Assembly (NCBI GenBank): GCA_951804945.1
Contig: OX638149.1
Location: 70,308,001 to 70,372,000, forward strand
Direction: 5' to 3'
Origin: Podarcis cretensis
Taxonomy: Eukaryota
DNA length: 64,000 bases
The notes below the pieces were generated by a model. The model was not told the DNA's origin and did no database searches. It saw only the letters and a list, made by a program, of their open reading frames with translations. The position numbers and the translations under genes were made by a program. Below are positions 1,325-63,578 of this stretch, one piece after another. Positions within the stretch are counted from its first letter, which is position 1. Every line of letters begins with the position of its first letter.

Positions 1325-1561
1325 GTGGCATACCGGCATGTGCAAATGACCGCTCCCCGCCTAAAACGGGGGGTGCCCTTTGCGTGGACGCGCGCAGCCC
1401 CTAGATCTGGAGCGGCTCCAACAGCAAAATGTTTTCAGGGGGAGAAGTTTTTTCGAGGCTCCCGCGGATCAGGCGCAGGCACATCTCAAGACAAAAGAGA
1501 GGCCGGAGCCTCTACAGGATACTCTGGCACACAGCAAAGCAAAAACAATGCCCGCAAATAG
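1325..1561 (+). pseudogene. Probable C-terminal remnant of Ngaro gag
   Basis: The ORF overlaps the pol start as gag does in YR elements. AYRHV and PTAKCF resemble pieces of the gag Cys/His finger, but their spacing is abnormal. Confidence 0.4.
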
Positions 1562-3176
1562 TGTTCTCCTTTCCTTAGCCCCCTCACCCATATCTCTATC
1601 AGCAATGCTGCCTTTTTTTACACCAGTACCCCAATAATTAGGTAGCAAAATACATTGAGGAGGGCTTTAGGGAAGGTTTCCGCATCCCAGTGGTAGGCAC
1701 CCCTTCATGCACCAATCCACCCAACCAAAAGTCTGTCCGAGATATGCCACACATGGCCGAGAAGATCACCAAAGAACACTTGCTGGGGCGAGTGGCAGGT
1801 CCCTTCACAGAAGCCCCATTTCCCACCCTCATAGTGTCTCCACTAGGTATCGTACCTAAGAAGGCCCCAGGCGAGTTTCGATTAATACATAACCTTTCTT
1901 ACCCAAAGGGTGGGTCAGTAAATGATGCCATTCCCCAAGAACAATGCTCAGTCAAATATGCATCTCTTGATCAGGCAATCAGGCTGGTTAGGGAGTGCGG
2001 CCCGGGCGCACTCATGGCAAAATGTGACATCGAATTGGCCTTCCGTTTGTTACCAGTCCACCCCAGGGACTTCTGGTTGCTAGGTTTCAAATTCCAGGAC
2101 CAATGGTACTTTGACAAAGCTATGCCCATGGGCTGTTCCATCGCATACGCTGCATTTGAAACCTTCAGCACATTCGTGGAATGGGCCATGAAACGCAGGT
2201 CGGGGTCCCACCGCATTTCCCATTACCTAGATGATTACTTTTTGGTCCAGCCAGCGGGCTCAGACGCGTGCGCTAGGGCGCTGGCATGCTTCATTCAGCT
2301 GGCGGCTGAACTGGGCATCCCGCTGGCAGCGGACAAGACCAAAGGTCCAACCACTGTCATCTCATATCTGGGTATTGAACTGGATTCTGTCAGCCAAACC
2401 TCTCGCCTGCCCCTGGCCAAACTCGCCACATTGAGGGAATTGATAACTACCATGATGGCCCAGAAAAAGACCACGTTGCGTCAGGTTCAGACACTCTTAG
2501 GACACCTCAATTTTGCATGCAGAGTTATCTCGCCCGGTCGCGCCTTTTGCGCACGCCTAGCCCGTCTCACAGCTGGCGGTGTTGCCCCCCATCACCACAT
2601 CAGGGTCACCCACACCATAAGAGAGGACCTCAAAATATGGCTGACCTTCCTGGAAAGTTACAATGGGGTGTCCTTTTGGCAAGATTGGCTGCTGCCTAAG
2701 GAACAGCTACAGGTGCACTCTGATGCCTCTAGTCGCTTTGGCTTCGGTGTCTACTTCAGGGGTCACTGGTGCGTGCAGCCTTGGCCGACATCTTGGCACG
2801 CGGAGGGCAGGAGGGCATTACACACGATTTAACTTTTCTTGAGTTCTTCCCAATCCTAGTGGCTCTCCGGGTTTGGGGGCACCTCCTCAAGGACACCAGG
2901 GTGTGCTTCTGGTTGGACAACCAGGCGGTGGTAAGAATCATTGCGAAGCAATCTGCAAAATCCAACAGGGTAATTCGCGTGCTCCGTCTCTTCGTGCTGG
3001 AATGTCTGAAAGGTAACATCTCCTTTTCCGCATGGTTCATCCCGGACCTCAATAACGACATTGCAGATGCCCTGTCTCACTTTCAGATGGAGCATTTTCG
3101 CAACCTAGCACCCGAGGCCGATCAACTCCCAGAAGCCTTTCTGGAGGACCTCTGGGAACTTGGACAAGAGGGGTGA
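1548..3176 (+). pseudogene. Ngaro reverse transcriptase-RNase H, disrupted
   Basis: ATG at 1548 (MPANSVLLSLAPSP), a frameshift in the T-run near 1613-1619 and TAG at 1639-1641. Then EGFREGFRIP, SPLGIVPKKAPGEFRLIHNLS, AKCDIELAFRLLP, MPMG, HYLDD and RNase H HSDAS. After an 8-bp duplication frameshift (2802-2817) it continues LTFLEFFPI, WLDNQAVV, NDIADALS. Confidence 0.92.
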
Positions 3177-4080
3177 CAGCAGGAGTACTGAGCGCCCTTG
3201 CACCATCAACATTGCAATCCTACACCAGAGCATGGTCCCAATTCGAGGGGTTCAGAGATAAGTTTGGTTTACGACGCAGACGTGTAGCTAAGGAGTATGA
3301 TGTTCTAAAATATTTGGTTCACCTAAAGCAGAGGCATGGCCCTTAAGACCATCAGCCTGCACAAGGCCGCTATCTCATACTTCAGCAACTGTTTTTGGCT
3401 CCCAGACCCCTGTAACACTTTCCACATAAGGAAGCTTATTGCAGGGTGGCGTCGCTCCCACCTGCCCATTCCAGATAAGAGGAGGCCAGTAACCATTGAG
3501 ATCCTCCGGCTGATATGGGATGCGCTCCCCAGTATTTGCTGGTCCAACTATGAGGTTAGGCTCTTCAGGGTGGCCTTCTCCCTGGCCTTCTTTGGTGCGC
3601 TCCGTATTGGAGAGTGCGTTGGGGGCACACTGTCACCTCATCGCAGGGGCTTGTCTGTGGCTGATATCAACCTTGACAGGCGCATGCTACAAGTCAAAAT
3701 CCAAGCCTCCAAAACCGATCAACTAGGTAGGGGTTCCAAGCTAAGTCTAGCCTCCTCCCCACACACTGGACCATGCCCTGTCACGGACACACGCAAATTC
3801 CTGAAGGTATGTCCTCCGGGGCCGGGCCCTCTCCTCATTCATGCATCAGGCCACCCCATGACCCGTTGCCAATTTTTCTCAATATTGCGTAAGGCCATCC
3901 ATGCTTGTGGAGGCGACCCGGCACAATTTTTCCGGGCATTCCTTTCATATCGGTGCAGCAACCATGGCAGCTGCAAGCGGCCTCCCGGCAGAACACATAA
4001 AAACAATGGGGCGGTGGCGTTCAGCTGCCTTCAAAGGCTACATTAGATACAACCAGCAGACACTGACAGATACCATATAA
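3161..4080 (+). pseudogene. Tyrosine recombinase (YR), two frameshifts
   Basis: N-terminus ALAPSTLQSYTRAW, then a frameshift near 3331-3335. Motifs AFFGALRIGE (Arg), SKTDQ (Lys) and CPV follow. After an extra T at 3927-3931 the frame reads SGHSFHIGAAT...MGRWRSAAFKGYIR, ending at TAA 4078-4080. The HxxR arginine is altered to His. Confidence 0.92.
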
Positions 4081-4093
4081 TCATTTCTTTCAG

Positions 4094-4404
4094 GCTCAAC
4101 CCCCAAACATGTGTGGATCTTCGGCCGCAGCATAGTGCATTGGGCGGCCATCCATGCCACCACTGGTCCAGGTGGAGAACATCTGGGTCTGCAGCCAAAG
4201 ATCTCCATTTCCTGGTTCGGACAACATGGAATGCGGTGGGATGCCCTGTTCCCTCGGTTGCGTCACGAACTTGCGTTCCACTACCCGCCAAATGCGGTTG
4301 TGCTCCACCTCGGTGAAAATGACTTGGTCGTGCGTAAAAGCATAATTCTGATCAAAACAGCGATCGCAGACCTGGAAAGCGTACACGCCACTCACCCCAG
4401 TATC
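4094..4404 (+). pseudogene. SGNH/GDSL hydrolase, N-terminal part (split by Copia)
   Basis: VWIFGRSIVHW (block I Ser; typically GHS in these elements), GMRW, LHLGENDL (block III GxND). The frame ends exactly at the TSD. Confidence 0.85.
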
Positions 4405-4729
4405 TGTTGGTTTCTGCTCTCTTCACTGTGCAGCGAAAGGCTTGTCACAAGACAATGTTTACATTCCACAGACAGCATTACTGTTGTGTTTCCCACGGGA
4501 AAAGGAGACTGGATGTGACGTACACTGGTTTCCTGTTTTTCACTGTTCTTTGCAGTTCAGTGTGATTCTCTCTGTGCTTCAGAGGAGAGAGGATGCAGTT
4601 CTCTGCTCCGGCAGAGACAAGATGGTTTTCTGTAATCTACCAGCTTTGAAATGTAAATAAAGCAATTTAGAGTATGTACACATATTCCTCATCATTCCGC
4701 TGTGCACGGGACACTGCTATAAATCAACA
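4405..4729 (+). repeat. Copia 5' LTR (325 bp)
   Basis: TGTTG...CAACA termini and AATAAA at 4656-4661. Matches the 3' LTR except 4440 G vs 9154 A. Confidence 0.97.
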
Positions 4730-4733
4730 TTTT

Positions 4734-4747
4734 GGTTATGGGCCCAG
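4734..4747 (+). promoter_or_regulatory. Primer-binding site for a tRNAiMet half-molecule
   Basis: GGTTATGGGCCCAG is the reverse complement of CTGGGCCCATAACC in the anticodon arm of initiator tRNA-Met. It lies 4 nt after the LTR. Confidence 0.9.
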
Positions 4748-5153
4748 AAGTCGAATCGGGCTCCTGGCAAAGGAGCAAAGACGCAGTCATCTGATGCCGG
4801 CAAAAGGATCGGAATGCAGAAGGACGGATCGGACGGTATCTGCGCGTCAAGATGATTGATGAGGTATGTGCTACTGCTCCGGGCAGCCTGCCAGCAACTA
4901 ATTAATGGCTTTATGGCTGGACTTTGAACTTTTATGTCCGTTTGCCGGGAACAGGCAGCGGCTATGCCTATGCTGGGGAAATCGAAAGTAACTTTTAGAA
5001 TGTGGGCTTTTGGGCTAAAGCAGCTGCAGAGAATAGTGACGCAGCACTATTAAAGGGCAGCAGAGAGAAAGCACTTTTGAACTTGCCTTTGGAATGAGGC
5101 TTGAAGCAGCAGAGACGCAGCTTGTATAAAGCAGCTTGTTTAAAGCAGCAGAG

Positions 5154-8100
5154 ATGACCCAGAAGGCTAATGCCAGAGTCATGATGGCCCTTCAGGATGC
5201 TTGTGGGATTCCCAAGCTCAATAAGAAAAATTATACGGACTGGGTTATCTATGCAGAGGCTATTCTGCGGAAAGAGGGTCTGTTTGAAGTTATTACAGAC
5301 ACCCCCCCAGCTCCAGTTACAGATGCATGGAAGGCTAAAGATTCCAAAGCAAGGGGAACTCTTACATAGATAGTATCCCCAGAAGAGCTCTGTCTATTGC
5401 GTGATAAGACCTCAGCCAGAGAAATTTGGGACGCTTTGAGAGAGGCACACATGAGGACAGAAGCTGAATCTTCTATGTTTTATTTTAACAAGCTGCATAA
5501 GATGGCTAGCTGCAGAAGGCTGGCTGATGCAAGTGGGGAATCTGAAGCCAATCAGCCACATGCTCAGCTCAGAGTAGCCTGTGATACTGCCATGATTCAA
5601 AATGAAGCAGATTGCCAGGGTGATAGCTGCATGGGAAAGGGGGAGTCTTCACAGACGTCATCCCAGAGTGCAGTGGAACCACCAGATGGCGCCAAAGCTT
5701 TGAAGGCAGTGAAATGCTACTCGTGTGGACGTCTAGGCCATATGAAGAGGGAATGCAAATATCCCAGGGCCAAGACAGAGCAGCGCAGCGAAAGCTCATC
5801 GCGTGGAAAAGGCCAGAGCAAAGGCAAAGGTCCGGTGTCCAGGACAACGCAGCACAAGGCAATGGTCTCACGCTTCACTCCAAAAGTTGCAGAGGTCCAG
5901 AAGACGTCTAGATCTTTCTTCGTTGTTGATTCAGCGGCAACCCATCACATGTGCAACGATAAGCGACTGTTCGTGTCTTTTACATCGCAGGAAGGTGCGA
6001 TTCACCAGGCGGATGACCACACAATTCCCAGTAAAGGCTACGGAACTGTTGTTCTTCACAGTTTGGACTTATCGATACAGAATGTACTTTATGTTCCAGA
6101 TGCCAAACATAATTTGCTCAGCGTTGGACAGCTGAATGAGCGGAATATTGACGTTTCCTTTAAGAACAAAAGGTGCATCATCACAAAGAAAAATGATTAT
6201 GTATTGTATGCTGAATATGCTGATCGTTTATATGTTTTGTATTATGATGATGTTGTGCAGGATGACACTTGTTGCATTGCAGGTTCTAACAAAAGTTTGC
6301 ATGCAGAATGTATTCATGATTTTCATCGAAAATTTGGTCATTTGAATTTTGAGACAGTATCTAAAATGCCTGCCTTGGTTGAAGGTATGACTATTAAACC
6401 CTGCAGGTACCACATGAAGTGCAAGGCATGCGCAGCAAACAAGGTGAAAATGGCTGCGAAAGGTAAGGTGTCTAGTAGGCAAGCTACAGAACCATACCAA
6501 ATTATTCATGCTGATTTGGTTGGACCACTAGCGCCCTCTTTGGGAGGAAATAGGTACTTCATGGTTCTCATTGATGCATTTTCCAGGTATATTCATGTGT
6601 ACAATCTCAAGCAGAAATCAGAGGCTTTTCCTAGGTTCAAGGAATTCTGTGCTTGGTTGGAAAATGTGCATGGTAAGAAGGTAAAGACTCTTTTCAGTGA
6701 TCGCGGAGGAGAATTCACTTCTCAGCAGTTTGAAGCTTTTCTGACTGAGAAAGGAATTCAACACGATTTGTCTAGTCCTCGCTCGCCATGGCAGAATGGA
6801 CTTGCAGAACGAGCAAATCAAACATTGCTTCAAGGGTTAAAAACCTTGCTGCATGATGCAAATCTTCCAGAGAGTTATTGGGCCGAAGCTCTCTCATGTT
6901 TCACTTACAGTTATAATCGCAGGTTATCTTCAGCGATTGGTTGTACCCCCTATGAGAAGATGTTTGGCAAGAAGCCATACATCAAACACATGAGAATTTT
7001 TGGTTCTGACATGTGGGTTCACTCACCACAAAACTCCAAGTTAGACAAGCGTGGTTTGCATGGTATCTTTCTAGGTTATGAGAAAGGTTCTTACAGAATA
7101 AGGATGACTGACTCTAAGACAATTAAGCTCACAAGAAGTGTTGAGTACAATGCCAAGTGGGGGGAGAATGTGGGAATTTTCCAATGTTATCCTGATGACA
7201 GTGATGAGACTGAGGATAGTCAAAAGCAACCGCAGCAACCCACACCCACTGATGAAAGTTCTGATTCTGATTCTGAGTCTGAAACTGAATCGGGTGATTC
7301 AGAGGATTTCAAGAGTGCGAAAGCCTCTATGCGACCCTCTGAAAGCTCTGATCAGGAATTGGAGGAACCATTGTTCACAATAGGTCGCTTTTCTCCCAAG
7401 AAGGAAGAGGAGAGTGTTGAAGACTTAAGGCTAATTCGCAGGTCACAGAGAGCAACAAAAGGCAGACCTCCAAAGAGATTTGCTGATGAATTTGCTAAGA
7501 TAGCAGTAACAGCTGTTAAAAGCTCCAAGAAGGTATTTGAACCTTCAAGTTTCCAAGAAATCCAGGATTTGGATTCAAAGGAAGCTGAGCCATGGTTAAA
7601 TGCCATGAAGGCTGAGCTTGATTCCTTGGAAAGGAACAAAACATGGGAACTTGTTCCAGTAGTTCCAGGAATGAAACTGTTTGGAAGCAAATGGGTCTTC
7701 AAAGCGAAGACTGATCAAAATCGCAAGATAGTCAGACACAAAGCCAGATTGGTAGCCAGAGGTTTTGCACAGGTACCAGGTGAAGACTATCACGAGACCT
7801 ACTCACCCACAGTGAGGTATGAGAGCATCAGGCTTATGCTCAAGCTAGCTGCAGAGGAGAATCTACATATTAGTCACCATGATGTGAATACAGCTTTTCT
7901 GTACGGATCTCTAAATGAATCACTTTATATGCTTCCACCTGATGGCGTACAGGTAAAACAGGGATTTGTTTGTGCTCTGAAGAAGTCCCTTTATGGTCTC
8001 AAACAAAGTGCACGGTGTTGGCACACAAAACTCACTGAAGTATTGTTTTCTCTAGGTTTTAAGCAAGGGAAAGCTGATCCTTGTGTATTTGTCAAAGAGG

Positions 8101-9071
8101 AGGGGCAAAAGAAACTGTATTGTTTGTTTTATGTTGATGATTTATTATTCTTTTGGGATGATGTCACAATGTACAATAACGCCCTAGCTCAACTGAAAGA
8201 ACACTTTGACATGAAAGATCTTGGTGAGGTAAACAACTACCTATCTCTGGAAATAGAGAGAGATCAAGATGGTAACATTCTAGTACACCAGTCACGGAAA
8301 ATTGCTGATGTGTTGAGCAAACTAAACCTGATGGATGCTAACCCTGTAGACACACCGATGATAACAGGTTATCAGGTAGATGACACTGAAGAAGCATTTT
8401 CTGACACTACACTGTACAGAAGTGTGCTAGGCAAGCTAAACTTCATTGCCAGATGTTCAAGACCAGACATTGCTGTTAGCTGTAATTTGCTAAGCAGACA
8501 AGTCAACAATCCTACTGTTAAGGATTGGAAAGCTCTGAAACGCATAGCGCGGTATTTGAAAGGCACTATGCATTACAGACTGAGATTTAACAATCAGAAG
8601 TCTGGTGGTCTTGAGATATTTGCAGATGCAAGTTTTGGAAGTGACACTACAGACAGGAAAAGCACGTCTGGAGTTTGCTACATGTACAATCAGGGTCTAT
8701 TTGATTGGTCATGCAAGAAGCAAACAACAGTTAGCTTAAGTACTTGTGAAGCTGAACTGAATGCACTGTCTTATTCACTTAAGGATTGTGAATGGTTGTT
8801 ACAATTGTGCAAAGACATGAAAATTCCTGTCAAATGTCCAATCCAGGTTTACCAGGACAACAAAGCATGTTTGGCTTTGCTGAATTATGAAGGTTGTAAG
8901 CAAAGCACGAAGCACTTGCAATTGAAGTTGCAACATGCTAGGGAACGTATTCAAAAGGGACTTGTAACGGTGTCCTATATGCCAGGTAATGAAATTCCTG
9001 CTGATGTATTGTCCAAGATTGTATCAAGGGATCAACACTGTACCTATGTGCAGAAGTTGGGTTTGTACTGA
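5154..9071 (+). pseudogene. Copia gag-pol polyprotein, single frame with one premature TAG (5367-5369)
   Basis: gag (KLNKKNYTDW, AREIWDAL), CCHC knuckle CYSCGRLGHMKREC, protease VVDSAATHHM, HHCC (HRKFGH...CKAC). Integrase HADLVGP/SDRGGEF/QNGLAER, RT KARLVARG/SLYGLKQ/FYVDD, RNase H ADAS/TCEAE/QDN/ADVLSK. ORFs 5136-5369 and 5397-9071 share one frame. Confidence 0.95.
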
Positions 9072-9104
9072 TATTGTACGAACACGCTGCCCAGTGGTGT
9101 TCAC

Positions 9105-9118
9105 AGAAAGGGGGAGGA
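9105..9118 (+). promoter_or_regulatory. Polypurine tract
   Basis: AGAAAGGGGGAGGA immediately before the 3' LTR. Confidence 0.9.
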
Positions 9119-9443
9119 TGTTGGTTTCTGCTCTCTTCACTGTGCAGCGAAAGACTTGTCACAAGACAATGTTTACATTCCACAGACAGCATTACTGTTG
9201 TGTTTCCCACGGGAAAAGGAGACTGGATGTGACGTACACTGGTTTCCTGTTTTTCACTGTTCTTTGCAGTTCAGTGTGATTCTCTCTGTGCTTCAGAGGA
9301 GAGAGGATGCAGTTCTCTGCTCCGGCAGAGACAAGATGGTTTTCTGTAATCTACCAGCTTTGAAATGTAAATAAAGCAATTTAGAGTATGTACACATATT
9401 CCTCATCATTCCGCTGTGCACGGGACACTGCTATAAATCAACA
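9119..9443 (+). repeat. Copia 3' LTR (325 bp)
   Basis: Near-identical to 4405-4729 and followed by the TSD GTATC. Confidence 0.97.
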
Positions 9444-9448
9444 GTATC

Positions 9449-9733
9449 ATGATTTTCTGGTCCGAACTTTTGCCACGCTTGCACTGGTGTGGCAACATCA
9501 AACCCACTAGACTTAATTACACTGTGGAAAAAATCAATAGGGCAGTGCGCTCTGCAACCACTCGCATGGGAGGTCGGGTCGTGAAATACCCCAACATTAA
9601 AGTTTACATGCAGGAGCTATTTCGGCCCGATGGCGTGCACCTATCGGACCTTGGTAACGAGCGTTGGCTGAGCGACATCAGGCATGGCCTGATTGACTGG
9701 TTGGAGGATGGCAAAGGGGCTTTTCAGATGTAG
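9449..9733 (+). pseudogene. SGNH/GDSL hydrolase, C-terminal part
   Basis: IFWSELLPR...FRPDGVHLSDLGN (block V DxxH). It rejoins 4404 in frame once the Copia and one GTATC are removed. Confidence 0.88.
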
Positions 9734-10469
9734 GTAGTCTTGGCGGCGAGACCACAATCTTTGCGGTCTCGGGTGGCGGTATCAGGCCTTGGGCGGAATC
9801 CTTTAGTCCATCTTCCTCTTTGCGGTGGCGATACCAGGGTTCCCCGTTAATGGGGTTTCTGAAGGGAGGCTCTGACCATACGCCAAAAGGTCGTCATTGC
9901 TCTCCCCTGCGGCGGCGGCGTAACAAGGGCGGCTATCTCTGCTTGAACATATGTTCTCCAGAGCTGGCCCATCCCCCCCACACACACTGGATAACCCTGA
10001 TGCTTCCTAGGTCCCCGACTGGGGAGGGAGAACACCCAATGCCTGAGCCAAGGTCTACCCACATTTGAAATTTAATAAAGTTGTGGCCAATTTAATCCCA
10101 TAGCACGTTGTCTTGAGTTGTTATTCCACATGACGGGGGGGGGACCGCGCGGGATCTGGGGACTCCGCCTGTCCACGCAATAAGAGATACAAAAGAACCA
10201 GGGCTGTGAATCTGGTCAGATACCCAGATCAAAGAAATTTCTATGCTGCAAACTTGGTTCTTCAGCTTGAGAAAAGAAGTATAAAAACAAAAAAGATTAC
10301 CATTTCATGTTTTGCATAACATTATTCTACAAGGGCTACAATTCCCCTTTTCCCTGTTTACCATGTGGCTTGGGAGGGATTTGCATGAACATTGATGCTA
10401 GGTGATTGCACCTAGAGGGGAGAAGATGCCCCACAGCAGCACACCCAAACCAGCAGAGGCTTTAGAGTA

Positions 10470-56300: not shown

Positions 56301-57346
56301 GCAAAATGTGCACATCTGAATCACGTCATTGACATTATTGATGGAATGACAATGAAAATGGAACTGACAAAAATTTAATAGGCTGACAGATTTTCCATGG
56401 AAATCCTCTTGGCAAACATGATTCCTAGAAAAGAGAGATATATTTTTAAAGGTTTAAAAATAAAATAAGAGAAGAAAGCTGTCAGAGAAGTAAAGAAGCA
56501 AGATGCCTGACTCACTTAGAAAAAGAAGGGAATTGTGCAGGTCTCAAACAGTCTCTCAGGAAATGCAAAACAGATTCATTCTTTTCCACCATGCATTCAG
56601 TAGTATAATTAAACACAGGGTGAAAAACAAGGTAAAATCATCATTGGTACTAAGGAAAACTCATTAGCAACCAAAAAGGGGCAGCAGTCAGACAACAGCA
56701 TTATTACTAAACGGGGACAAAACATCCATTCAATTCTCTGAAAAGTATAGCCCTACTACTAGAACACTTCCCTTCAAATAATAACAATGAGTGGATGCTG
56801 CTAAAAGGCAAATTTCACCAGAAAGGCCTAGTGAAAAAATAACAATGCCAGTCAAGTAAGCATTCCCCCCTGGAGCATTTTGAAGAACAGAGAGTGAGTC
56901 ACATTTTTAATCCTACTCTGAAGAAAACAAAGAAACCTAACAGGCATTTTGCAATTCGCGGGTGAAGTAGGGAAAATCATGTCTTGTTCTCTATGACTGC
57001 AACATTTTTTTTATAAAAAAAAAAGTCTTTGTACCGAAAGGCTGGCAAATGAAGGTCAGATTCTTATATAACATTCTCCCGCCATTAAAAAAAGTATGTT
57101 GCGGGGGGGGGGGCAGATGAAAATACTGGGTGTGAGATGGGGTGTGGGGCTAGTAATGATTTTACCACAATAAATCCAAATTAATTTTGGATTTGGGCAT
57201 AATTCTTTTTTTCAAAGGACTTTGCTATGGAGGAAAAACATTAGATCAACCCTAAATTATTTTATTTAGAGTTAGGATGCTGTGCAACAGATTTCTTCTT
57301 AAAACCACTTGTAGGTTGTTAGGCTGAGAGAGTAAGCATGATGGTG

Positions 57347-59254
57347 CATCTGCAGAAAACAGCAGCAGGAGACTCTTTCAGGTGGTTCACAATTTAGCGG
57401 AACCACCTGTAACATCGGGGCCCAGTACGGGCCATATGTTCTCCTGCAATGATTTTGCAAATTTTTTTGCAGATAAAATCGCTCAGATTCGGGAAGAAGT
57501 AGACTCCACTGTGGGAGCAGGGCCGGGGCGGGAGAGTGCTAGAGTCCTGTCTGGTCAAGTTGTGTGGGATCAATTCCAATCTGTTACCTCCGAGGATGTG
57601 GACAGGCTGCTTGGACGAATGAAGCCAACCACCTGTCTCCTGGATCCTTGCCCATCCTGGCTTATAAAAGCTAGCCGGGAAGGACTGGGCGATGGGCTTC
57701 GTGGGGTGGTGAATGCTTCCCTCCGTGAGGGAGCCTTCCCAGACCCGCTGAAAGAGGCGGTTATTAAACCGCTTCTTAAAAAACCATCTTTAGATGTGGC
57801 CACGATGGCCAATTATCGCCCAGTCGCAAACCTTCCATTCTTGGGCAAGGTGATTGAGCGAGTGGTTGCTGAACAACTTCAGGCACGCCTGGAAGAAGCG
57901 GACCATTTGGATCCCTTCCAGGCGGGATTCAGGCCTCATCATGGGACTGAAACTGCCTTGGTCGCACTGGTTGATGATCTCCGGCAGGCTAAGGACAAAG
58001 GTGAGAGCCGTTTCCTAGTTCTGCTGGATCTCTCAGCGGCGTTTGATACCATCGACCATAACATCCTTCTGGACCGTCTTGAGGGGCTGGGAGCTGGGGG
58101 CACTGTCATACAGTGGTTCCGCTCCTTTCTCCTGGGCCGTGTTCAGAAAGTGGTGGGGGGGGGTGAGTGTTCAGACCCCTGGGCTCTCACTTGTGGGGTG
58201 CCTCAGGGTTCTGTCCTCTCCCCTATGCTTTTCAACATCTATATGCAGCCGCTGGGAGTGATCATCAGGGGGTTTGGGCTGGGTGTTCATCAGTATGCGG
58301 ATGATACCCAGCTCTACCTCTCTTTTAAATCAGAACCAGTGAAGGCGGTGAAGGTCCTGTGTGAGTGCCTGGAGGCGGTTGGAGGTTGGATGGCGGCTAA
58401 CAGATTGAGGTTGAATCCTGACAAGACAGAAGTACTGTTTTGGGGGGACAGGAGGCGGGCAGGTGTGGAGGATTCCCTGGTCCTGAATGGGGTAACTGTG
58501 CCCCTGAAGGACCAGGTGCGCAGCCTGGGAGTCATTTTGGACTCACAGCTGTCCATGGAGGCACAGGTCAAATCTGTATCCAGGGCAGCTGTTTACCAGC
58601 TCCATCTGGTACGTAGGCTGAGACCCTATCTGCCTGCAGACTGTCTCGCCAGAGTGGTACATGCTCTGGTTATCTCCCGCTTGGACTACTGCAATGCGCT
58701 CTACGTGGGGCTACCTTTGAAGGTGACCCGGAAACTACAACTAATCCAGAATGCGGCAGCTAGACTGGTGACTGGGAGCGGCCGCCGAGACCATATAACA
58801 CCGGTCTTGAAAGACCTACATTGGCTCCCAGTACGTTTCCGAGCACAATTCAAAGTGTTGGTGCTGACCTTTAAAGCCCTAAATGGCCTCGGTCCAGTAT
58901 ACCTGAAGGAGTGTCTCCTCCCCCATCGTCCTGCCCGGACACTGAGGTCCAGCTCCGAGGGCCTTCTGGCGGTTCCCTCACTGCGAGAGGTCAAGTTACA
59001 GGGAACCAGGCAGAGGGCCTTCTCGGTAGTGGCGCCCACCCTGTGGAATGCCCTCCCATCAGATGTCAAAGCAATAAACAACTACCTGACATTCAGAAGA
59101 CATCTGAAGGCAGCCCTGTTCAGGGAAGTTTTTAATATGTGACATTTTAGTGTATTTTTCATCCTTGTTGGAAGCCGCCCAGAGTGGCTGGGGAAACCCA
59201 GCCAGATGGGCGGGGTACAAATAATAAATTATTATTATTATTATTATTATTAAT
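57347..59254 (+). mobile_element. Young 5'-truncated L2 LINE
   Basis: Open RT frame, (TTA)n tail, and 19-bp TSD GAGAGTAAGCATGATGGTG (57328-57346 / 59255-59273). Confidence 0.93.
57382..59142 (+). CDS. L2 ORF2 reverse transcriptase, open but lacking the N-terminal endonuclease
   Basis: NYRPVANL, QAGFR, LLDLSAAFDTIDH, GVPQGSVLSP, QYADD, and the L2-typical DHITPVLKDLHWLP. Confidence 0.88.
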   Translation: MVHNLAEPPVTSGPSTGHMFSCNDFANFFADKIAQIREEVDSTVGAGPGRESARVLSGQVVWDQFQSVTSEDVDRLLGRMKPTTCLLDPCPSWLIKASREGLGDGLRGVVNASLREGAFPDPLKEAVIKPLLKKPSLDVATMANYRPVANLPFLGKVIERVVAEQLQARLEEADHLDPFQAGFRPHHGTETALVALVDDLRQAKDKGESRFLVLLDLSAAFDTIDHNILLDRLEGLGAGGTVIQWFRSFLLGRVQKVVGGGECSDPWALTCGVPQGSVLSPMLFNIYMQPLGVIIRGFGLGVHQYADDTQLYLSFKSEPVKAVKVLCECLEAVGGWMAANRLRLNPDKTEVLFWGDRRRAGVEDSLVLNGVTVPLKDQVRSLGVILDSQLSMEAQVKSVSRAAVYQLHLVRRLRPYLPADCLARVVHALVISRLDYCNALYVGLPLKVTRKLQLIQNAAARLVTGSGRRDHITPVLKDLHWLPVRFRAQFKVLVLTFKALNGLGPVYLKECLLPHRPARTLRSSSEGLLAVPSLREVKLQGTRQRAFSVVAPTLWNALPSDVKAINNYLTFRRHLKAALFREVFNM

Positions 59255-61373: not shown

Positions 61374-63578
61374 AAAAGGTAAAGGACACCTGACAGTTAA
61401 GTCCAATTGTGAACGACTCTGGAGTTGCGGCGCTCATCTTGCCGAGGGAGCAGACAGTTTTTCCAGGTCATGTGGCCAGCATGACTAAGCCGCTTCTGGC
61501 AAACCAGAGCAGCGCACGGAAACACCATTTACCTTCCCGTACCTATTTATCTGTGGTTTTCCATGGATCTGAGGGCAATGAAACAATTGTTGAGACGGCT
61601 AGAGCGCCGGTGGTGGATAACTCATTCCGAATCTGACCGGACACAGGTTAGAGCTCAATGTTGAGCCTACCAAGTGGCGATAGCGGCGGCGAAGAAGACT
61701 TTCTTCACCGCGTCTATTGCATCTGCAGAAAACAGCAGCAGGAGACTTTTTCAGGTGGTTCGCAATCTAGCGGAACCACCTGCTACATTGGGGCCCAATA
61801 CGGGCCACATGATCTCCTGCAATGATTTTGCAAAGTTTTTTGCAGATAAAGTCACTCAGATTCGGGAAGAAGTAGACTCCACCGTGGGAGCAGGGCCAGG
61901 GCGGGAGAGTGCCAGAGTCCTGTCTAGTCAAATTGCGTGGGATCAGTTCCAGTCTGTTACCTCCGAGGATGTGGACAGGCTGTTTGGACGAATGAAACCA
62001 ACCACCTGTCTCCTTGATCCTTGCCCATCCTGGCTAGCCGGGAAGGGCTGGGCTTCGTGGAGTGGTGAATGCTTCCCTCCGTGAGGGAGCCTTCCCAGAC
62101 CCACTGAAAGAGGCGGTTATTAAACCGCTTTTTAAAAAACCATCTTTAGATGCGGCCACGATGGCCAACTATCGCCCAGTCTCAAATCTTCCATTCTTGG
62201 GCAAGGTGATTGAGCGAGTGGTTGCTGAACAACTCCAGGCATGCCTGGAAGAAGCGGACCATTTGGATCCCTTCCAGGCGGGATTCAGGCCTCATCATGG
62301 GACTGAAACTGCCTTGGTCGCACTGGTTGATGATCTCCGGCAGGCTAGGGACAAAGGTGAGAGCTGTTTCCTAGTTCTGCTGGATCTCTCAGCGGCGTTT
62401 GATACCATCGACCATAACATCCTTCTGGACCGTCTTGAGGGGCTGGGAGCTGGGGGCACTGTCATACAGTGGTTCCGCTCCTTTCTCCTGGGCCGTGTTC
62501 AGAAAGTGGTGGTGGGGGATGAGTGTTCAGACCCCTGGGCTCTCACTTGTGGGGTGCCTCAGGGTTCTGTCCTCTCCCCTATGCTTTTCAACATCTATAT
62601 GCAGCTGCTGGGAGAGATCATCAGGGGGTTTGGGCTGGGTGTTCATCAGTATGCGGATGATACCCAGCTCTACCTCTCTTTTAAATCAGAACCAGTGAAG
62701 GCGGTGAAGGTCCTGTGTGAGTGCCTGGAGGCGGTTGGAGGTTGGATGGCGGCTAACAGATTGAGGTTGAATCCTGACAAGACAGAAGTACTGTTTTGGG
62801 GGGACAGGAGGCGGGCAGGTGTGGAGGATTCCCTGGTCCTGAATGGGGTAACTGTGCCCCTGAAGGACCAGGTGCGCAGCCTGGGAGTCATTTTGGACTC
62901 GCAGCTGTCCATGGAGGCACAGGTTAAATCTGTGTCCAGGGCAGCTGTTTACCAGCTCCATCTGGTACGCAGGCTGAGACCCTATCTGCCTGCGGACTGT
63001 CTTGCCAGAGTGGTGCATGCTCTGGTTATCTCCCGCTTGGACTACTGCACTCTACGTGGGGCTACCTTTGAAGGTGACCCGGAAACTACAACTAATCCAG
63101 AACGCGGGAGCTAGACTGGTGGCTGGGAGCGGCCGCCGAGACCACATAACACCGGTCTTAAAAGACCTACATTGGCTCCCAGTACGTTTCCGAGCACAAT
63201 TCAAAGTGTTGGTGCTGACCTTTAAAGCCCTAAATGGCCTCGGCCCAGTATACCTAAAGGAGCGTCTCCACCCCCATCGTTCTGCCCAGACACTGGGATC
63301 CAGCGCCGAGTGCCTTCTGGCAGTTCCCTCACTGCGAGAAGCCAAGTTACAGGGAACCAGGCAGAGGGCCTTCTCGGTAGTGGCGCCCTCCCTGTGGAAC
63401 GCCCTCCCACCAGATGTCAAAGAGAACAACAACTATCAGACTTTTAGAAGACATCTGAAGGTAGCCCTATTTAGGGAAGCTTTTAATGTTTGATGTATTA
63501 GAGGATTTAAATATTTTTTTGGAAGCAGCTCAGAGTGGCTGGGAAAGCCCAGCCAGATGGGCGGGGTACAAATAATAA

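Follow-up and report, generated by a model that had tools for sequence, protein, structure and literature searches.

Conserved splice signals indicate that intact Ngaro retrotransposons probably produce their SGNH esterase as a spliced Gag fusion

Introduction

A 64,000-nucleotide stretch of the Podarcis cretensis genome (assembly GCA_951804945.1, contig OX638149.1, positions 70,308,001 to 70,372,000, forward strand), hereafter the window, contains at positions 1345-10181 a Ngaro-type retrotransposon, recognised by its split direct repeats and gene order, in which an SGNH esterase frame follows the tyrosine recombinase. The analysis indicates that intact Ngaro elements of this genome very probably make this esterase as a fusion to the N-terminal part of Gag (Gag-N), by splicing from a donor in gag to an acceptor at 4093/4094 (a slash marks the splice point), and that the recombinase is likely made in the same manner. 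The donor and the two acceptors are conserved, each of them in phase 1; RNA reads make use of the esterase acceptor, and some genomic copies are missing exactly the predicted introns. The second phase-1 acceptor, at 3086/3087, which opens a recombinase frame without an ATG, is new beyond the original prediction, a note made from the letters of the window alone. That note had placed the sequence CACTGAC at 4061-4067, an AG at 4092-4093 and the first in-frame ATG of the esterase at 4231, and all of its coordinates hold.

The Esterase Acceptor

The original prediction described a canonical 3' splice site just upstream of the esterase and proposed that its conservation be examined across genomic copies. 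Among 29 sibling loci of the window copy, the AG and the branch motif are each kept in 28, and the TAA that ends the recombinase is kept in all 29; this conservation is of limited weight because the siblings are 93-96% identical. No in-frame ATG precedes the catalytic Ser codon in any of the 29 siblings, as had been claimed for the window.

A wider test employed 60 of the 153 esterase-matched loci, spread over score classes, together with the full-length sibling L038; two junction-bearing loci were left out, giving 59 loci; these are not 59 independent cases, since they group into 35 clusters at 90% exon identity and into 8 at 75%. In 57 of these 59 loci, from diverged families, a YAG ends 29 nucleotides (nt) before the glycine of the GHS motif, in phase 1, with one 1-nt deletion and one AG-to-GG change as the two exceptions, while at any other single offset from -70 to -3 an AG is found in at most 8 loci. 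The pyrimidine fraction of the acceptor tract is 0.83, versus 0.48-0.50 in flanking coding DNA, and a branch-like motif is present in 56/59 loci, versus fractions of 0.02-0.61 across 14 control windows. The families that share branch motif, tract and AG at a fixed distance are just 40-50% identical in protein.

RNA Evidence

None of the runs on record as RNA is listed as containing the element. Four RNA runs were aligned to sibling L039, namely the stranded runs X22 and X23 (related species, ~12% of reads) and the Logan contig sets X1 and X5. Joints end at L039 position 7194, which corresponds to window position 4094, in both stranded runs. One joint, aligned as 6366 (+26 letters) to 7194, comes from a GT donor at 6393/6394 on L039 (window 3294/3295), inside the recombinase, with 4 and 8 reads; a second and weaker one comes from L039 position 6356, with 3 and 2 reads and an alignment of 6354 to 7192, at a place where neither L039 nor the window has a GT. 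The Logan contig sets X1 and X5 contain no joint at the esterase acceptor. RNA cover is limited to the 3' part and the repeats, with gag nearly uncovered by raw reads, a pattern indicative of transcription of a truncated copy from a host promoter.

The junctions at 4094 that the original prediction suggested looking for are therefore present, but the donors mapped lie inside the recombinase and none in gag; the reads demonstrate that the acceptor works, not what its normal partner is. With branch motif, tract and YAG conserved and with use in RNA, the site has the features of a functional 3' splice site, and it is very probably a working acceptor.

The Gag Donor and Intron-Less Genomic Copies

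It had been suggested that the spliced mRNA might be fused to a gag exon lost in the window copy, and the data from other copies support this. In all groups where it is readable, gag contains a basic stretch followed by the motif G[T/R/M]SSS...YW, at which the putative donor lies. The glycine codon of this motif is GGT in 34/34 loci (22 clusters at 90%, 6 at 80%), versus 31% of the other glycine codons of gag. The donor mostly reads CAG/GTAC or CCG/GTAC, and CAG/GTAGGT in the family of the window copy. In L038 it follows Gag residue 213, in phase 1, matching the esterase acceptor, and the Gag-N that it would delimit is 23% Arg and 24% Ser.

The closest named homologs come from lacertid lizards. 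Among 36 database matches, this donor/acceptor pair is exactly where Gag-N meets the esterase in 15 lacertid models; others join from inside the recombinase or read through the intron. A genomic search with P0028, which is independent of gene prediction, gave one match of 101 that spans the gag-esterase junction in one frame. L141/L153 is full-length, with the repeat order A1...B1-A2-B2, and is minus exactly the donor-to-acceptor stretch when compared with sibling L100 (97.8% and 99.2% identity). L082 and L091 are without the GT..AG stretch from a recombinase donor to the esterase acceptor, and in L103 a GT..AG stretch that starts at the gag donor and ends at a cryptic acceptor is missing. Judged from their sequences, the simplest reading of L141/L153, L082, L091 and L103 is that they are reverse-transcribed spliced RNAs. 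A scan for deletions gave 20 junction rows, of which 6 are GT-AG compatible and 3 of those were discounted for overlaps of 16-19 nt.

The 2-kb GC-rich leader before gag in L038 contains donor-like or acceptor-like sites at about 1369, 2797, 2951 and 3098, as well as 170-nt tandem repeats; in L153 this leader region stays unspliced.

The Recombinase Acceptor

The recombinase frame is also without a fixed start, its first Met lying 30-274 residues in. At the RNase H motif ADALSRFQ/M a pyrimidine-rich CAG is found, in phase 1 of the recombinase frame in loci free of frameshifts. The CAG is present in 41/41 loci, and in all of them an in-frame stop lies 6-10 codons upstream. The Zootoca gene LOC118082278 has a model X1, in which Gag-N is joined to the recombinase, and a model X2, in which Gag-N is joined to the esterase, with the first 207 residues common to both. 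Among the matches listed (of 47), 5 of 17 models join Gag-N at the recombinase acceptor. In L163, one of 98 matches of P0189, the recombinase follows Gag-N immediately, and reverse transcriptase (RT) is absent. These sequence comparisons suggest that 3086/3087 is likely used from the same gag donor. A third acceptor for pol was also looked for; AG occurs at the candidate site in just 17/40 loci, and the frame of the L103 acceptor is not conserved.

At L039 position 6183 (window about 3084), foreign sequence runs up to the recombinase acceptor in 17 and 14 RNA reads, as splicing from a host exon into a truncated copy would produce.

The Esterase Domain

All of the SGNH blocks are present in the exon, I (Ser), II (Gly), III (Asn) and V (DxxH). 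Over 54 sequences G6, G69 and N71 are invariant, and S8, G41, D160 and H163 are found in at least 90%. The motifs named by the original prediction, GRS at 4123, GEND at 4312 and DGVH at 9629, are all there, but GRS is private to the window copy, the siblings having GHS in 28 of 29 loci and SHS in one. An AlphaFold model of L010, a natural uninterrupted copy, was built from the 54-sequence alignment and has a pLDDT (predicted local distance difference test score) of 96. The Foldseek matches listed for this model are all SGNH/GDSL-type or designed scaffolds, with template-modelling scores up to 0.75. The esterase of ZfL2-1 ORF1p (PDB 4c1b) is the top match both by sequence (E 2e-6) and by fold, at ~27-29% identity. 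The exon is thus modelled as an SGNH alpha/beta-fold, esterase-like domain, in agreement with the structure check that had been proposed. The two separate esterase halves of the window gave no Pfam match. Gecko, anole and frog protein models have low-complexity N-termini on the same SGNH domain, as seen at the protein level only.

Several further observations concern this exon. In the subfamily L022-L030, tandem 112-nt duplications (homologous to window 4223-4333), several copies long, disrupt the esterase frame, yet they are spread over many loci; RNA of the related species has a comparable 121-nt back-jump. In each of the library proteins P0038, P0039, P0041-P0043 and P0045, which are 1300-3100 residues long, 4-6 stretches match the esterase. 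A vomeronasal receptor model of Zootoca (P0002) terminates in a piece of esterase, 78% identical, the exon having been captured by the host model.

The Window Copy

The features of the window copy are collected in Table 1. In the full-length sibling L038, A1 (1071-1334) equals A2 (8236-8499) and B1 (7830-8240) equals B2 (8683-9093), giving the order A1...B1-A2-B2 of the split direct repeats by which Ngaro-like elements are recognised. Gag, RT/RNase H and tyrosine recombinase follow in that order and are all open in L038, where the recombinase is intact; recombinase homologs carry names such as integrase/recombinase xerD. Pol stops ~30 residues past the RNase H motif with no methyltransferase there, and the SGNH frame comes after the recombinase.

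Table 1. Features of the Ngaro copy and its insertion in the window
Feature	Position	Strand	Details
A1 (5' split direct repeat) remnant	1345..1426	+	blastn: equals L038 1072-1152
gag C-terminal remnant	1427..1561	+	tblastn with L038 gag residues 469-519
Reverse transcriptase / RNase H	1621..3176	+	one frameshift near 2808; Pfam RVT_1 E 2e-10; tblastn
Candidate second acceptor, phase 1, in RNase H end	3057..3087	+	CAG 3084-3086, exon from 3087; opens ATG-less recombinase frame
Tyrosine recombinase open reading frame (ORF)	3087..4080	+	frameshifts near 3330 and 3927; stop TAA 4078-4080; tblastn
Cryptic donor in recombinase gene, 3294/3295	3290..3300	+	homologous place joined to esterase acceptor in RNA reads
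3' splice site of esterase exon, phase 1	4061..4093	+	branch motif 4061-4067, pyrimidine tract 4081-4090, CAG 4091-4093
SGNH esterase exon, 5' part	4094..4404	+	Ser codon 4129-4131, block II Gly 4228-4230, GEND 4312-4323
Young Copia interrupting esterase	4405..9443	+	long terminal repeats (LTRs) 4405-4729 and 9119-9443
SGNH esterase exon, 3' part	9449..9733	+	DGVH 9629-9640, stop 9731-9733
3' repeat B, single copy	9774..10181	+	homologous to L038 7830-8239

The window copy has kept part of A1 and one B, and A2 and the second B are missing. By an internal deletion the end of A1 is joined to the end of gag (1427 equals L038 4532, blastn), so that the start of gag and its splice donor are gone; the gag donor motif has no occurrence within the window. 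With three frameshifts, the Copia insertion and the A1-to-gag deletion, the copy is dead, and with the donor lost and the Copia inserted it is unable to make a Gag-esterase fusion. In the shortened copies L037, L042, L050, L064, L066 and L067 the A1 end (L038 1321-1327) is likewise joined to varied internal positions. Such copies resemble 5'-truncated products completed with an A repeat and are possibly a footprint of the replication mechanism.

The Copia has LTRs of 325 nt each that differ by one base, a 5-nt target duplication (4400-4404 and 9444-9448), TG...CA termini and the order protease-integrase-RT, as in Ty1/Copia elements. When it is removed, the two flanking esterase pieces share a reading frame and together amount to 192 residues, as originally described. 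The Copia is very young, yet an in-frame stop interrupts its gag at 5367-5369 (frame region 5154-9071). Elsewhere in the window, two long frames on the + strand, at 57328-59139 and 62038-63111, resemble reverse-transcriptase fragments of long interspersed nuclear elements (LINEs).

Alternative Explanations

Several observations weigh against splicing from gag as the source of the esterase. No read or contig in the four runs joins the gag donor to either acceptor, gag being barely covered by raw reads; the observed joints start from donors inside the recombinase, seemingly in a truncated copy of another species, and the majority of reads across the esterase acceptor are unspliced. The database models do not reveal what RNA evidence supports them, and they may be ab initio. 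No intron-less copy was found in the family of the window copy (0 matches to the junction pattern); the closest deletion end there, in L064, stops 7 nt short of the acceptor on its upstream side. In other families 0 matches to the junction patterns were obtained, and another set gave 1 match along with 1 control match, in unrelated DNA; no junction-spanning match occurs among 98 matches of P0004 and 86 of P0202. For the recombinase, the acceptor overlaps conserved RNase H codons, where CAG makes up 116 of 167 Gln codons (69% expected), and L163 is without a close unspliced sibling (best 75-79%). The Pfam profile Lipase_GDSL_2 scores 31.3 bits (E 3.5e-7), below its gathering cut-off of 32.9. 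A further point is that in 22 of the 59 loci, from other families, a Met lies in the exon between the acceptor and the Ser.

These Met codons, which are in frame, are also what favors an alternative in which the acceptor is real and the working mRNA uses a non-coding leader or a recombinase-internal donor, a free esterase being started at a Met in or near the exon. The RNA joints from recombinase-internal donors fit this, as do L082 and L091, in which such splices were copied into DNA. However, a Met is missing there from 37/59 loci and from every sibling of the window copy, the acceptor stays in phase 1 although a leader splice would not need this, the recombinase-internal donors are not conserved and L141 uses the gag donor, which makes the free esterase unlikely. 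A still less likely explanation treats the splice signals as cryptic by-products and attributes the intron-less copies to DNA deletions at short stretches of shared sequence, with the esterase made rarely or by another route. Internal deletions of that kind are common in these elements, and 3-5 nt are common to the two sides at the junctions (3 in L141, 5 in L082 and L091), which is compatible with a DNA-level deletion in each case taken singly; the uncertain origin of the gene models helps this explanation too. Against it, a non-coding branch motif, tract and AG would have to be held at a fixed distance across such diverged families, the deletion in L141 matches both predicted sites to the base, and RNA reads use the acceptor.

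The original prediction had also allowed for readthrough of the recombinase stop, giving the esterase as a recombinase-esterase fusion, and this was rejected as extremely improbable. The frame link through a single TAA holds in the window and in 29/29 siblings, but not across families, where the frame offsets are 0 in 23, 1 in 12 and 2 in 13 of 48 scorable loci. Frame 0 is therefore the commonest, yet it is absent from 25/48 loci, members of one 90% cluster can differ in frame, and the distance from the recombinase stop to the GHS glycine downstream ranges from 45 to 127 nt. To our knowledge, TAA followed by TC is no recognised readthrough context. Splicing to the esterase acceptor is left with an acceptor conserved across copies, siblings without an upstream ATG and spliced reads, each of which the original prediction had named as open to contradiction.

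Proposed Mechanism and Implications

In retroelements, unspliced RNA is both the genome and the template for Gag and Pol. In the proposed mechanism, the unspliced RNA of an intact Ngaro element would likewise give Gag and Pol and act as its genome. Splicing from the gag donor to 4093/4094 would produce an Arg/Ser-rich Gag-N (~210-230 residues) followed by the SGNH domain, ~410 residues in all, and splicing from the same donor to 3086/3087 would produce a Gag-N-recombinase fusion. We infer that these fusions are translated and what their role is: the basic Gag-N would keep the enzyme on the RNA-protein particle of the element, and the SGNH domain would bind and hydrolyse lipids at membranes. 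By analogy with what has been proposed for the ZfL2-1 ORF1p esterase, we tentatively suggest that the fusion tethers a lipid-active enzyme to the element particle. In a broader form, which is plausible but somewhat short of probable, vertebrate Ngaro elements would be complex retroelements with retrovirus-like splicing, where one gag donor gives rise to Gag, Gag-N-recombinase and Gag-N-esterase, and Gag-N co-packages the enzymes with the RNA for a membrane step.

For two decades the Ngaro hydrolase has been on record with no function assigned, and in many families both it and the recombinase lack a usable start codon. If the proposal is true, it gives the first definition of the actual esterase and recombinase proteins, and the annotation of the ORFs changes. 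Dozens of "uncharacterized" lizard gene models would then be transposon isoforms, and many inserted copies would bear strong acceptors able to capture host transcripts. Splicing would also recreate the basic-tail-plus-esterase design of LINE ORF1p and imply a membrane step in tyrosine-recombinase retrotransposition.

Comparison with Known Systems

Retroviral env is made from a spliced subgenomic mRNA, and Ty1/Copia elements reportedly have spliced subgenomic mRNAs as well. As in these systems, partial splicing of one Ngaro transcript would give several proteins while the unspliced RNA serves as the genome. The description "env-like" in the original prediction fits loosely: it agrees in the spliced mRNA, but the product would be a Gag-N fusion rather than a separately initiated protein. 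Unlike retroviral env, one gag donor would feed at least two acceptors, a long Gag N-terminus would be kept, and no envelope function is indicated.

The nearest described elements are the Ngaro-like DIRS-53_XT and DIRS-54_XT of Xenopus, which carry an SGNH hydrolase ORF with no proven function (PMC9210276). Common to both are the A1...B1-A2-B2 repeats and the order gag, RT/RNase H, recombinase and then SGNH ORF. The Xenopus elements are described with four overlapping ORFs, and the string "splic" is absent from the text (PMC9210276); unlike in that description, the esterase and the recombinase here appear to be two alternative 3' exons, each fused to Gag-N. Native Ngaro splicing is also unreported in the portions consulted of PMC7192593, PMC6681497, PMC9341512, PMC4157794 and PMC8547959. 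No report of Ngaro splicing was found in the literature covered, with the 2004 paper by Goodwin and Poulter, the 2015 paper by Poulter and Butler, Repbase comments and supplements outside that coverage.

ZfL2-1 ORF1p has an arginine-rich N-terminal part followed by an SGNH domain, which hydrolyses esters and binds acidic phospholipids (PMC3905857). The predicted Gag-N-esterase fusion shares with it the arginine-rich N-terminus before the SGNH domain. ZfL2-1 is a non-LTR element in which this protein is encoded by one continuous ORF and has a coiled coil, whereas in Ngaro elements the same architecture would arise by splicing.

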